Source: Sedimentisphaerales bacterium (GTDB lineage Bacteria > Planctomycetota > Phycisphaerae > Sedimentisphaerales > SM23-30). From it: 64,000 bases of DNA. The position numbers and the translations under genes were made by a program. Shown piece after piece: positions 5,335-60,164 of this stretch (positions are counted from its first letter, which is position 1; every line of letters starts with the position of its first letter). The DNA lies in NCBI GenBank assembly GCA_963666285.1, contig OY762711.1; one strand, 5' to 3'. The notes under the pieces were generated by a model, which worked only from the letters and a program-made list of their open reading frames with translations, had not been told where the DNA came from and ran no database searches.

Positions 5335-5729
5335 GATTTTGCCATACTATAATATAGTAAAGAAATCTGCTATCAAATAAAATACTGGTAGAAAGATTTC
5401 TGGTTTATATGAATATAACGCAATTATTTAGTTTTACTATATTTTATCGGCAATAATCGGATCACAAATGAGTAATTTACGTCCTGATAAATTTGCTATA
5501 TGATTGGCAGCAGAAAGGTTATGGGACGTTTGTTTTTGAAAAAATTTTCATTTTTTAAAAATATTTTACTAAAGGTCCATAATTTTTTTTATTATTGGAA
5601 CTTAAGGCGAATAAGGAAGGCCCATCTTGTAAGTGTCTTTTTTTCAAGTGTTTATATTGAGTGATAAGTCGTGTTGATATGGCATGAAAAACAGTTATGG
5701 AACATGTTTTAAAATATTATCGCTCTTTC

Positions 5730-5757
5730 TAAAGTTTTTTGGTTATATTGACGAAAT
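5730..5757 (+). promoter_or_regulatory. Putative sigma28 (FliA/SigD) promoter of flagellin
   Basis: TAAAGTTT-N12-GACGAAAT versus consensus TAAAGTTT-N11-GCCGATAA; the structured leader begins ~7 nt downstream. Confidence 0.6.
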
Positions 5758-5763
5758 ACAAAA

Positions 5764-6310
5764 GGCAACAGACAACGGTCTATAAAACAGACAATTCCGG
5801 GTTGTTAAGGAACCGATGTCGGTTGCGAGTCTCCATAAGACTCAAGGATGAGCAGGCCTAACTTTGATCTGGACATTCAAAGTGCGGCTGACTGTGAAAA
5901 GGAGTTTGCAACGGAGTTGCTGCTTTTCTTTCGCTAACATATAACAAAAGTATTTTAGATCTGAGAGATCAGATCGCGGTTGTTGTGTGTGGTGGAACCC
6001 ACTTCAAACATCTCGTATCAGAATTCCCAATTATTCACGTAATCAAATGCAAGATCACCATTTAAAAGGTGGTCGTAAATGGCGATTCCTGTGTATCTAC
6101 AACTCCCAGGACGGCGGGATTGTGTACATCTCGCGTTGTAGATAAAAATCTGGCCAAGGGTGCCGGTATTTCGGACAGGAAAGGATTAAAAGTTCTTTAT
6201 CAATGGTACTTTACGGGAATCGCTTGAATCCTAACAGACCAAAACCAGGACGAAGTATACGGTCTGTTGTGTGGACAGGCATTAGCCTGCCTTGTCACGG
6301 AGGATAAACC
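5764..6310 (+). promoter_or_regulatory. Large structured 5' leader of flagellin with many GGA (CsrA-type) motifs
   Basis: More than 10 nested stems paired by eye, several with G-U pairs that work only on the + strand; 16 GGA trinucleotides; no ORF of 60 aa or more. Confidence 0.6.
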
Positions 6311-7765
6311 ATGACGCGTATTAATACAAACATTTCAGCTATGAACGGGATCAAGTCTTTGGTCTCAAACAACAACGATCTAGCCACCAGGCTTGAGCGA
6401 TTGTCAACAGGTCTAAGGATCAACGCAGGTAAAGATGACCCTGCCGGTCTGATAGCATCTGAAGTAATCCGCTCAGAAATGAAAGGGCTGGAAACCGGTA
6501 TCAAGAACTCAACCAGGGCTTCGAATGTGATAGCGACAGCGGAAGGTGCTCTTAATGAAGTATCTGCTTTGCTAATCGATATTCGCGGGCTTTTGATTGA
6601 GAATGCTAATACCGGTGGTATGTCAGATGAGGAACTCGATGCTAACCAGCTTCAGGTTGACTCAGCGATTGAGACCATTCAGCGAATCGCTAATGCGACT
6701 GAGTTTGAAGGTATCAAGTTGCTGAACGGAAACCTGGACTATGTAGTATCGGGTGTGTCAGCTGCCTTAATTCAAGATTATCAGATTGATAAGGCAAAAC
6801 TGGTAGATGGTGCAGCAATGGCTGTTGATGTAACTCTGGTTAGTGCAGCAAACACTGGCTTCCTGCGTCTATCGACGACGACAACAGGGTTATTAACAGC
6901 GGCAGCCATCCAGATCGGGTCAAATCGAGGAAATACCGAGCTAACCTTTGCCGTAGGAACGAAAGCATCGGGCATGTTGGCGAGCATAAATGCTGTAAAA
7001 GAAGTAACAGGCATTTCAGCTGCCATGTCAGGTTCAAATCAGATTCTGCTTCGCAGTGTTGAATTTGGAACCAATGCTTATGCTAGTGTGGAAATGTTGA
7101 ACTCATCAACAATGAGCAACACCCTGTTTGAACTATATGATGAAGGCGGAACATCGCAGGATTCTGCAAAGGATTATGGTGTAGATGCAATTGCCACAAT
7201 CAATGGTTCTGCTGCAACCGCTGACGGTAAGACATTGACGGTTCGTACCAGTATGCTTGAAGGCACCTTTGAATTGTCAGATGGTTTTGCACTATCTGCA
7301 GGCGGAACAGATTCCTTCAGTGTTACCGGTGGTGGAGCACAGTTTGCCATAGGTTCCAAGGTTGACGCTGTTAATGTTGAATCTATAGGTATTATGTCTA
7401 TAGCTCCTAACGAACTTGGAAATGCTGAAGACGGTTACCTCAATACACTCAAGAGCGGTCAGTTGAATTCACTTACCGGTGATAATTTGTATACTGCTCA
7501 GCGAATCGTTGATGATGCGATCAAGGATATCGCGGTATTGCGAGGAAAACTCGGTGCGTTCCAGAAAAATACAATTGAAACGAATATCAATTCTCTGACT
7601 GTAACTTTAGAGAATGTGACGGCGGCAGAGTCAGCTATCCGAGATGCAGACTTTGCTACCGAAAGTGCGGCAATGACAAGAGCACAGATCTTGCAGCAGT
7701 CAAGTACTTCTGTCTTGTCTATTGCGAATACTACGCCGCAGAGCGTCCTGGGACTACTAGGCTAA
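6311..7765 (+). CDS. fliC: Flagellin
   Basis: N-terminal RINTN...LERLSTGLRINAGKDDPAGL; C-terminal AAESAIRDADFATE...PQSVLGLLG; RBS GGAGGA. Confidence 0.97.
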   Translation: MTRINTNISAMNGIKSLVSNNNDLATRLERLSTGLRINAGKDDPAGLIASEVIRSEMKGLETGIKNSTRASNVIATAEGALNEVSALLIDIRGLLIENANTGGMSDEELDANQLQVDSAIETIQRIANATEFEGIKLLNGNLDYVVSGVSAALIQDYQIDKAKLVDGAAMAVDVTLVSAANTGFLRLSTTTTGLLTAAAIQIGSNRGNTELTFAVGTKASGMLASINAVKEVTGISAAMSGSNQILLRSVEFGTNAYASVEMLNSSTMSNTLFELYDEGGTSQDSAKDYGVDAIATINGSAATADGKTLTVRTSMLEGTFELSDGFALSAGGTDSFSVTGGGAQFAIGSKVDAVNVESIGIMSIAPNELGNAEDGYLNTLKSGQLNSLTGDNLYTAQRIVDDAIKDIAVLRGKLGAFQKNTIETNINSLTVTLENVTAAESAIRDADFATESAAMTRAQILQQSSTSVLSIANTTPQSVLGLLG

Positions 7766-7990
7766 TTGCGAACTCGGTGATTTCCCACCGAATCAGCTTA
7801 CTTGTAAGTTGGCTCACAATTAGTCTCCGCATCCGGGAAGCTCACCGGGCCGTAAGTAGGTCAGTAGTGTACCTTAACGGACCTAGTCTGTACGGCCAGT
7901 CAGATAAAGTCCGGCCGGAGAGACAGCAGCAGCGGAGTTTTTAAGCTGTTAATCCGGAGATAAGGAGTTTCACTTAAGGGTGATCCTCTT
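7761..7990 (+). other. Structured 3' trailer of flagellin (3' UTR or possible ncRNA)
   Basis: Three-way junction closed by 7761-7768/7817-7824 and a ~100-nt rod at 7823-7924, upstream of the terminator. Confidence 0.5.
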
Positions 7991-7996
7991 TTGAGA

Positions 7997-8058
7997 GGCC
8001 CAAGCCTCCAACAGAAACTTGTTTTATCAGTGTACTGTTGAGAGGCTTGGGCCATTTT
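7997..8058 (+). terminator. Intrinsic terminator-like hairpin closing the flagellin transcript
   Basis: GGCCCAAGCCTC-CAACAG / CTGTTG-A-GAGGCTTGGGCC followed by ATTTT. Confidence 0.7.
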
Positions 8059-58433: not shown

Positions 58434-60164
58434 ATGGCAAGAGCCAAAAAAACAACTAGCAAAGCCGCTGATGAATCAGTTGAGCAAGAAGAGCTATTTG
58501 ACGACTTTGATAAAGAACTTGAAGCTGAGAGCAGCAAAGCAACAAAAAAGAAGACTGCAAAAAAGAAAACAGCTGCTAATAAAAAGTCAGCTGCTGACAG
58601 CAATCTGGAGTCAGAATTTGATAACGATTTTGAAGAGAATGCTATCGAGGCTGAGAAGCAGAAACAGCAGCAGAGAAAACAGCATTACAATAACAATAAT
58701 AATAACAATAACAACAAGAATAAAAATAATGGTTCTAACGGGAGGTCAAAAAATAACAAAAAGAAATCCGGTTCGAACAATAATAACAGGAACAATAATA
58801 GAAACAATAATAGAAGTGGTGCCGATGAAGATCCGTCAAAGTTCAAGTCTTTGATGGAATATGACACCGAAACTTATGAACGGTATGAAGAGGCCAAGAA
58901 GAGTAATCTGCATATTAAAGAGCTGCAAAAGATGGAAGTTGAAGAGCTTCGTGAAATTGCAAAATCTGAAGGGCTCGACGAGTATGCCGGGTTGAAGAAG
59001 CAGGACCTTATCTTTATGATCGTTCGTAACCGTATTCGTATGAACGGTCTGATGTATGGTGAAGGTGTATTGGAGCTGCTGCCGGATGGTTATGGTTTTC
59101 TGCGTACTCCTGACTATAATTATGTGCCGTGTCCTGATGACATTTATGTGTCGCCGTCTCAGATTCGTCGTTTTGGTTTGCGTAATGGTAATATTGTTGC
59201 CGGTGCGATCAGGCCGCCGAAGGAATCAGAAAAGTATTTTGCTTTGCTGCGTGTTGAAGCGGTGAACTATGAAGATCCGGAAGCGTTGACAGAAAAGACT
59301 GTCTTTGAAGATCTTACCCCGCTCCATCCGGAAGAGAGACTGGTATTGGAGACATCTTCAAACGAATTGAATATGCGTATTGTTGACCTGGTGACTCCTA
59401 TTGGTAAAGGTCAGCGTGGTCTGATCGTTGCTCCGCCTCGTACCGGTAAAACAGTTCTGCTCCAGAAGATTACAAATTCAATCGCACAGAATCATAAAGA
59501 AGTTCATCTGATTGTTCTTCTTATTGATGAGCGTCCTGAAGAAGTAACAGAAATGAAACGTGCTACCGGTGAAGACGTGGAAGTTGTCAGCAGTTGTTTT
59601 GACGAACCTGCCAGCCGTCACGTTCAGGTTGCCGAGATGGTAATCGAAAAGGCCAAGAGAATGGTCGAGTTCGGTCGCGATGTTATTATCGTGCTTGACT
59701 CTATCACACGTCTGGCTCGTGCATACAATACTGAGATGCCTCACTCTGGTAAGATTCTTACCGGTGGTGTTGATGCTAACGCCCTGCAGAAGCCTAAGAA
59801 ATTCTTCGGTGCTGCCCGTAACATCGAAGAGGGTGGTTCGCTGACTATCCTGGCAACTGCCCTGGTTGATACCGGATCAAAGATGGACGAAGTTATTTTC
59901 GAAGAGTTCAAAGGTACCGGTAATATGGAACTGCATCTTGACCGTCGTCTGGTTGAGCGTCGTACCTGGCCGGCTATTGATATCAGCCGCAGTGGTACCC
60001 GTAAGGAAGAATTGCTCATGGATCCGAAAGAACTAGAACTCTCTTATCGTCTGCGTAAGATTCTCAGCGATATGAATCCGGTCGAAAGCGTAGAATTGCT
60101 CAAGACCAGGTTGAAAAAGACCAGCAGCAATGCCGAGTTCCTCATGACAATGAACCTGAGCTAA
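58434..60164 (+). CDS. rho: Transcription termination factor Rho with long N-terminal low-complexity extension
   Basis: [32 protein letters not shown] and FKGTGNME motifs; ATG 58434 after AGGAG. Confidence 0.97.

Follow-up and report, generated by a model that had tools for sequence, protein, structure and literature searches.

What kind of RNA, if any, is encoded in the 547 nucleotides (nt) that lie between a sigma28-like promoter and the ATG of a flagellin gene in a Sedimentisphaerales bacterium? We studied this leader (positions 5764-6310, plus strand) in a stretch of 64,000 nt from contig OY762711.1, referred to here as the window. A first-pass annotation, made from the letters of the window, had proposed a new large cis-regulatory RNA or a built-in sponge for CsrA. 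We find that the leader is a conserved structured RNA and not a product of chance. Our reading of its function, in which we place about even confidence, is that the leader is repressed by CsrA and that its distal sites add CsrA-binding capacity.

A conserved structured RNA upstream of a flagellin gene

The leader of the window folds at -173.1 kcal/mol, compared with -145.2 +/- 6.5 kcal/mol for 100 dinucleotide shuffles (z = -4.32), so the dense folding noted in the first pass is beyond chance. When separated, the two halves also fold on their own (z = -4.46 for the 5' half and -3.46 for the 3' half). All stems listed in the first-pass annotation are present in the window, and the predicted fold contains every one except the competing CTC/GAG hairpin. 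As family-wide features not all of them survived: the GAGA tetraloop hairpin was not seen in any other leader, and the alignment confines the ACATATAACAA stem to the genus of the window.

A protein search of 40 relatives yielded 21 complete leaders (window included), 490-602 nt long, from 16 genera of the window's own family. Pattern scans gave 19 genome matches, 14 of them before this flagellin, and 26 metagenome matches, again with 14 before it; the other 5 and 12 matches had no adjacent flagellin and matched the leader poorly, and were dropped as chance. Removing exact duplicates left 34 leaders, and removing three near-identical ones left 31. All 34 had z scores of -2.4 or lower (12 shuffles each). 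The sense fold was better than that of the reverse complement in 33 of the 34, which agrees with the selection on plus-strand RNA that had been suspected from G-U pairs.

The leader precedes the orthologous flagellin in 23 of the 25 genomes of this one Sedimentisphaerales family. The encoded orthologues are 55-82% identical, and outside the genus of the window the leaders are 47-55% identical to that of the window. A covariance model of the 5' core found one copy in 22 of the 25 genomes, most of them training sequences. Its three misses are a divergent leader that alignment still reveals, a contig break, and an 85% complete genome without leader, csrA, fliW or the orthologous flagellin. Beyond the family, a search with a leader profile was negative for 27 flagellin loci from other families of the Phycisphaerae, model R1 matched none of 138 genomes of the class, and model R2 gave one weak match (E = 2.6e-4, inside an unrelated open reading frame, ORF) among 139 genomes of the phylum; large searches use stricter filters. 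The flagellins of other Phycisphaerae have different, shorter leaders (173-338 nt where the promoter pattern was found), and 23 of 27 have a CA-N-GGA ribosome site. Six flagellins of another Phycisphaerae family (L054, L057, L058, L059, L068 and L076) share a different leader of 240-340 nt with ACGGATT loops and the motifs ACAAGGAGGT and GGGCGGAGC, which does not match the profile of the leader studied here.

We searched Rfam for a known family that might account for the leader. There was no match within it, and the three chance-level matches in the window lay outside it; 20 relatives had none at gathering score, and six loci had none at E values up to 1. Searches of open-access full text, without the supplements of RNA motif surveys, brought up no paper that describes the leader RNA. 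Taken together, the fold, conservation, covariation and absence from Rfam uphold the proposal of a new large structured RNA. We rejected a repeat or mobile element, since leader and trailer are single-copy in the genome, and the replacement of a housekeeping RNA, since RNase P RNA, 6S RNA and tmRNA lie elsewhere in the genome (signal recognition particle RNA was not searched). No upstream ORF that might encode a leader peptide occurs at a shared position among the 31 leaders.

The GGA content that had led to the sponge proposal is less telling in number than in conservation. We confirmed 16 GGA and 6 TCC. Shuffles predict 10.8 GGA, and 16 were reached in 19 of 1000; 1.6% of 550-nt windows of the genome hold 16 or more. 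Eight of the 16 are kept in 29-31 of the 31 leaders and the other eight in at most 8. The kept eight make up seven sites: five numbered ones (1, 3, 4, 6 and 7), the GG[UKGAA]CC loop, and the ribosome-site hairpin, in which two GGAs overlap. These sites are retained in 28-31 of the 31 leaders. Several do present GGA in loops, as annotated, but the loop GGA at 5871 is found in just 8 leaders. At site 1 and in the ribosome-site loop, the N positions of ANGGAN vary while GGA is constant, the pattern described for CsrA/RsmE (PMC7652899). ANGGAN is the loop bound by RsmE, and sites 6 and 7 (CAGGACG) are two exact copies of the CsrB repeat CAGGA(U/A/C)G (PMC7652899).

Across the 31 leaders GGA is 1.40-fold and AGGAC 4.6-fold enriched over shuffles. 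In the 21 leaders from the protein search, which used no GGA pattern, the values with the ribosome site removed are 1.31-fold and 4.66-fold. As a control, 17 leaders of a flagellin paralogue with the same promoter type gave 1.03-fold and 0.56-fold, and 15 of these folded with a median z of -0.9. We set aside a genome-wide motif count with zero rival windows, because its pattern was derived from the leader itself. In the ensemble, the GGA of site 4 is unpaired with a probability of 0.88, that of site 6 with 0.77 and that of site 7 with 0.55.

Covariation, counted on sequence-only alignments, is strong in two parts of the leader. The site-6 domain has two-sided changes in 10 of 13 pairs (43 cells, against 15.3 +/- 3.5 in shuffled alignments), and its helices are 85% paired compared with 28-57% in slid controls. 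In P1, 7 of 11 pairs change on both sides (25 cells, against 10.4 shuffled). The UKGAA hairpin is modest by comparison, with 3 of 10 flanking pairs covarying, and sites 1, 3 and 4 contribute none. The site-7 stem is absent from the RNAalifold structure of the sequence alignment, which has a 4-bp helix at the ribosome site as the only helix there, because loop lengths misalign. A long ATGAGC/GCTCAT helix was rejected for want of covariation, and kissing of the CCGGG and UKGAA loops was rejected because the pairing is broken in variants. The coordinates of all elements are collected in Table 1.

Table 1. Elements of the flagellin locus and its leader in the window (all coordinates in the window; leader counts out of 31).
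Element	Position	Strand	Evidence or remark
Conserved AAATATTATCGC block, directly 5' of the promoter	5712..5723	+	Motif recurs in most family loci, 14 nt 5' of TAAAG
Sigma28-like promoter, TAAA-N16-GACGAAAT	5730..5757	+	Predicted start near 5764; fliA in genome
P1, 5'-terminal interrupted helix; loop NNCCGGG (5795-5801), mostly without GGA across leaders	5765..5826	+	Covariation
GAGTC/GACTC hairpin overlapping site 1, CTC[ANGGAN]GAG (5841-5852); folds mutually exclusive	5827..5852	+	Site 1 in 29/31
H3, hairpin of variable sequence; loop GGAC, AGGAC or GGGC, but only in part of the leaders	5855..5891	+	30/31 local folds, by eye
Site 3 (ANGGA, 5899-5903, bulged stem) and site 4, GCAA[CGGAG]TTGC (5908-5920)	5894..5934	+	28/31 and 30/31
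GG[U(G/U)GAA]CC pentaloop hairpin, invariant	5991..5999	+	31/31; GGA in 29/31
A+U-rich, poorly folded spacer between the halves	6012..6050	+	Mean 33 of 50 nt A/U
3' multi-helix domain; site 6, CAGGACG (6107-6113), bulged between two stacked helices	6081..6225	+	AGGAC in 31/31
Hairpin with site 7, CAGGACG (6246-6252)	6232..6269	+	GGA in 30/31; enclosing stem in most local folds
Ribosome-binding-site hairpin GTC[ACGGAG]GAT; ANGGAN hexaloop over the Shine-Dalgarno	6294..6305	+	31/31
Flagellin, 484 amino acids (aa), one of several paralogues	6311..7765	+	ORF; family name from sequence
Conserved structured 3' trailer of ~300 nt; long terminal hairpin (7997-8053) and T run	7766..8058	+	z = -5.46

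Predicted promoter and transcript, and the 3' trailer

We read the sigma28-like promoter at the place where the first pass had put it, and its spacing to the leader is kept in relatives: the -10 element lies 5-9 nt before a conserved 5' RGCRAY in 20 of 21 loci by pattern and in the 21st by eye. The site was named promoter-like from the sigma28 consensus, and from it transcription would start near 5764. The AAATATTATCGC block is possibly an activator site or an extended promoter element. As a separate observation made by eye, a GTCC(C/T)ATAA-like motif (5574-5583 in the window) and TTATCG(C/G) (5712-5723) recur ahead of sigma28-type promoters at several flagellin paralogues, both in the family and in the class, and they are possibly sites for a further flagellar regulator.

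The gene had been described as stand-alone. This holds in the host genome but not everywhere: in 13 of the 21 genomes with complete leaders it lies a few kilobases behind csrA, on one contig in the order csrA, two other flagellins, leader-bearing flagellin, and it is therefore stand-alone in some lineages only. Within the host genome, the flagellin paralogues are 33-58% identical to its product. One paralogue, which starts at G000:C1 5136345 on the minus strand and has the strongest codon bias among the host flagellins, belongs to a group with its own sigma28-type leader, mostly 300-350 nt long (L108-L124). These leaders show recurring GCAGAAC and AAACACCCYGG motifs and, in 13 of 17 relatives, a strong Shine-Dalgarno followed by ATG-NNN-stop, an arrangement found in 2 of the 31 leaders studied here. 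A sixth flagellin-like ORF of ~690 aa (G000:C1:5692886-5694958, plus strand) also occurs in one relative of the genus.

RNA runs were searched with a homologous locus (L023) in place of the window, and four of the 18 runs were analysed. In two of the four, from two studies, contigs bridge the leader and the coding sequence of L023. One run (X1) gave an 877-nt contig that begins 51 nt into the predicted leader and extends across the start codon, and another contig with the second half of the gene and 235 nt of trailer. A second run (X2) gave a 459-nt contig over the 3' half of the leader and the start codon, and covers the downstream gene too. In X6 coverage of the leader is limited to 24 nt, and in X5 there is none. 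No contig of the four runs covers positions 593-1004 of L023, which comprise the upstream spacer, the promoter and the first 51 nt of the leader.

At every complete locus the leader is continuous with the start of the flagellin gene and does not end as a free untranslated RNA with its own terminator. We found no credible terminator inside it; the one terminator-like match, at 5908-5920, compares with 2.4 expected by chance. Between the two halves, the A+U-rich spacer is possibly a nuclease entry site. It is not rut-like, since C exceeds G in only 15 of the 31 leaders.

Downstream of the gene lies a second structured region, which the first-pass annotation does not mention. The trailer folds with z scores of -3.6 to -10.1 in 21 of 21 loci and is present at a 22nd orthologue. 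Two-sided changes affect 14 of its 32 consensus pairs, and the conserved elements are GYRG-YGWA-CCTT, GCGGAG and the long terminal hairpin. It is single-copy in the genome, has no excess of GGA and has no match in Rfam. In two host paralogues, by contrast, the stop is followed within ~60 nt by a short hairpin and a T run (by eye). A trailer loop near 7892-7897 reads GGCC in most loci and CCGG in several (by eye, alignment A6). Both are palindromes, and CCGG also occurs in the first loop of the leader, so that self-pairing through these loops is possible.

Pairing between leader and trailer was rejected (11 of 20, against 11-13 in a permuted control), as was an antisense action of trailer or leader on the start region of a paralogue (-21.8 for own and -21.9 for other genomes; 17 genomes, one paralogue). 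For the trailer we found neither the Hfq or ProQ partner nor, at that start region, the flagellin messenger RNA (mRNA) pairing of FliX- and FlaX-type RNAs. Most likely its role is to stabilise the transcript, or it persists as a 3' RNA after processing; CsrA does not explain its role.

Proposed CsrA control and competing explanations

The first-pass annotation had suggested looking for csrA and fliW, and both are present in the host genome, side by side and 5' of another flagellin; they occur in 24 of the 25 family genomes. The CsrA protein (69 aa) has L4 and R44, residues that bind RNA (PMC7652899), and N55, whose change to D abolishes FliW binding in B. subtilis (PMC6529632). The csrA-adjacent flagellin of the host has the same ribosome-site hairpin as the studied leader. 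Genes for fliA, rho and RNase E/G are present as well. We found no FlbT, Hfq or ProQ in the 97% complete host genome, and FlbT control of flagellin was rejected on the absence of flbT. Additional csrA-like genes away from the flagellin cluster occur in four family genomes (G004, G010, G018 and G023). The host has two rho-like genes, at G000:C1:1463841-1464959 (minus strand) and 5946911-5948155 (plus strand; ~58900-60150 in the window); one exceeds the family cut-off and the other, which is shorter, falls below it.

An ANGGAN-type site lies over the Shine-Dalgarno in every one of the 31 leaders. In the window, 51 nt separate the ribosome site from a second loop-presented GGA, site 7; across the leaders this distance is 46-70 nt, with a median of 60. 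CsrA bridges sites 10-63 nt apart (PMC7652899), a range that includes site 7 in the window and that some leaders exceed. Between the distal sites and the ribosome site there are 190-450 nt. In total the leader has seven sites, with two exact CAGGACG copies, fewer and less exposed than the ~18 of CsrB. Given seven conserved candidate CsrA sites, this is probably an unusually elaborate version of the known flagellin switch.

The mechanism that we propose would run as follows. The sigma28 promoter would give one ~2.3 kb transcript made up of the 547-nt leader, the flagellin, the 300-nt trailer and a terminator hairpin, and CsrA dimers would bind the leader. A proximal pair of sites would block translation; one is the ANGGAN loop over the ribosome site and the other the CAGGACG loop that lies 46-70 nt 5' of it. 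As in the Hag-FliW-CsrA switch, export of flagellin would then free FliW, which would remove CsrA and allow translation. The distal sites (1, 3, 4, 6 and perhaps the UGGAA loop) would load further CsrA dimers onto the folded scaffold, so that each transcript would take several dimers from the pool and lessen repression of the csrA-adjacent flagellin. Repression of the leader by CsrA, taken alone, appears likely to us. Titration of CsrA in trans is a less secure part, for which we see an even chance. An extra CsrA load per transcript would be the simplest use of the distal sites, as shown for the 45-nt leader of C. jejuni flaA (PMC4894983).

Several observations weigh against this reading. The excess of GGA is modest (1.3-1.4-fold). 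A plain sponge is opposed by the lack of conservation in half of the GGAs and by a density of 2.8 GGA per 100 nt. The GGAs of sites 1, 3 and the ribosome site are mostly paired (unpaired probability 0.42, 0.25 and 0.38; average 0.35), with an opening cost of 2.1-5.0 kcal/mol, and the distal sites are 57-146 nt apart in sequence, mostly past the bridging range. The helices around sites 1, 3 and 4 show no covariation excess, their columns being nearly invariant, and the covariation counts in general ignore relatedness and use structures drawn from these same sequences. The CCGGG loop would not be a CsrA site if a change of GGA to GGG abolishes binding, as it does in C. jejuni (PMC4894983). The RNA contigs agree with one long transcript; they carry no start, strand or level, and DNA carry-over is possible. 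Finally, the codon bias of the leader-bearing flagellin is ordinary (67th percentile), with a paralogue at the 5th percentile and a difference in the same direction in 7 of 9 relatives; the transcript may therefore lack the abundance needed for a sponge. The bias, which marks the paralogue and not the leader-bearing gene as strongly translated, would fit an abundant RNA under repression and a rare RNA just as well, and it suggests that the leader-bearing gene encodes a minor flagellin.

The main rival is a switch that acts purely in cis, which we regard as possible but doubtful. CsrA would act at the ribosome site, and the distal sites would form a refolding switch for decay, pausing or premature termination of their own transcript only. 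Its elements would be the GAGTC/GACTC hairpin set against the site-1 hairpin, and an opening of site 3 once site 4 is bound. Both mutually exclusive site-1 folds are indeed kept, the GGAs of sites 3 and 4 are 12 nt apart with site 3 buried in a stem, and the ordinary codon bias fits a tightly repressed minor flagellin. Rho is present in the genome, and E. coli pgaA combines six sites with CsrA-driven Rho termination (PMC7652899). However, the spacer is not C-rich (15 of 31), a rut site was rejected, the sole terminator-like match is below chance expectation, and the alternative helix that we tested does not covary. Alternatively, the transcript may be mainly an RNA device that happens to encode a minor flagellin: a tertiary-folded CsrA antagonist on the scale of CsrB, within a sigma28 mRNA of a FliW lineage, which would come on late in assembly to release translation of the other flagellins, the trailer being a second folded domain or a separate stable RNA of a novel type. 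We consider this unlikely. A partner other than CsrA (a second protein, a small ligand or the RNA itself via loops) is quite unlikely in our estimate, with the tertiary-folded RNA then positioning or storing the mRNA and its CsrA sites being secondary. In its favour, CsrA does not appear to account fully for the CCGGG and UKGAA loops: NNCCGGG, with CCGG(G/A) in 29 of 31 leaders, and GG[UKGAA]CC in 31 of 31 (two without GGA) are invariant loops for which CsrA has no need. The T-loop consensus UGxRA accommodates UKGAA (PMC7583486), so that the hairpin may be a weak CsrA site or a T-loop-like tertiary element. The trailer, too, is conserved without an excess of GGA, and its GGCC or CCGG loop is palindromic at either kind of locus. 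Set against this are the failure of leader-trailer pairing to exceed the permuted control, the absence of a riboswitch match in Rfam and the broken CCGGG-UKGAA pairing, and four-base palindromes are weak evidence.

We see a slight chance that a free CsrB-like RNA is made from the leader, with cleavage in the spacer or early termination freeing a 250-nt 5' half (sites 1, 3 and 4) and the trailer forming a second stable RNA like FliX or FlaX. Each half folds alone, there is an A+U-rich spacer and, in the genome, an RNase E/G gene, one RNA-library contig starts at the UKGAA hairpin, short contigs (243-298 nt) reach the trailer in related strains, and small RNAs (sRNAs) from flagellin 3' untranslated regions (UTRs) are known in E. 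coli and Vibrio (PMC10578931, PMC11879080). Contig ends are not RNA ends, however, and another contig crosses the spacer into the gene; the leader has no credible intrinsic terminator, Hfq and ProQ were not found, and pairing with the paralogue start region is not genome-specific. We give next to no chance to a T-box-type sensor of transfer RNA, suggested by GGTGGAACC, or to the lack of any functional RNA. We compared GGTGGAACC with the longer T-box sequence. It resembles the T-box bulge UGGN (PMC7583486), but the UGGN position is UUGA in 2 of 31 leaders, the motif closes as a hairpin loop with neither antiterminator nor terminator, and Rfam gives no match at loose E values. A lack of function is opposed by conservation and covariation, which exclude chance. 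Of these readings we continue to prefer a CsrA-repressed leader with added binding capacity at its distal sites.

Relation to known CsrA-binding RNAs

The flagellin leaders studied so far have two sites within 45-100 nt. In the present FliW lineage, one flagellin is surrounded by ~850 nt of folded RNA in 16 genera, and by their alignments leader and trailer form two RNA families that Rfam lacks. FliW relieves two-site CsrA repression, and a review treats the joint action of FliW and sRNAs on CsrA as open in any species (PMC7652899); fliW is anti-correlated with the system that drives the Csr sRNAs (PMC4682653). If the RNA-device explanation were true, an RNA sponge and FliW would act together outside Gammaproteobacteria, on a dedicated scaffold. 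The significance is limited by a range of one family and a core switch that is already known. The organisms are uncultured, and leader and CsrA are small enough for in vitro work.

By its sequence, the leader resembles those of hag and flaA and has the sequence features expected of them; it is not a CsrB-family sRNA, a T-box or a known riboswitch. The closest likeness is to C. jejuni flaA, whose mRNA is both CsrA target and sponge: a flagellin 5' UTR with ANGGA loops, one on the ribosome-binding site, with FliW and CsrA, a proposed target-and-sponge role and a structure kept by compensatory changes (PMC4894983). The flaA leader, however, has 45 nt and two stem-loops, about one twelfth of the 490-602 nt seen here with seven conserved sites and multi-helix domains. 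In addition, flaA encodes the major flagellin, whereas the gene studied here is probably minor by its codon bias and has a conserved 300-nt trailer. B. subtilis hag shares the two-site repression layout with one site on the Shine-Dalgarno, a CsrA with N55, and fliW-csrA beside flagellin genes (PMC6529632, PMC7652899). It differs in its ~100-nt region and near 1:1 ratio of CsrA dimer to transcript, where the present leader would have room for several dimers, and the genome here has four or more flagellin paralogues with different leaders.

Repeats of CAGGA(U/A/C)G and ANGGAN loops within a single RNA recall CsrB/CsrC and RsmX/Y/Z (PMC7652899, PMC4682653). Those RNAs occur in Gammaproteobacteria, are free and untranslated, stand under BarA-UvrY and have ~18 repeats, whereas the leader is joined to a coding sequence, has a sigma28-type promoter, two exact repeats and seven sites, belongs to a FliW lineage and is unmatched in Rfam. 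E. coli pgaA also has a long leader with six CsrA sites, the proximal ones on the ribosome site and the distal ones remodelling structure (PMC7652899), but rut sites become exposed in pgaA, the present spacer is not rich in C, and gene and lineage differ. The trailer, as a long RNA after a flagellin stop, is like FliX from the 3' UTR of E. coli fliC (~200 nt; PMC10578931) and FlaX from that of V. cholerae flaA (PMC11879080). Those RNAs pair with mRNAs via Hfq or ProQ, whereas the trailer is heavily base-paired, in a genome where neither protein was found and no target pairing was seen.
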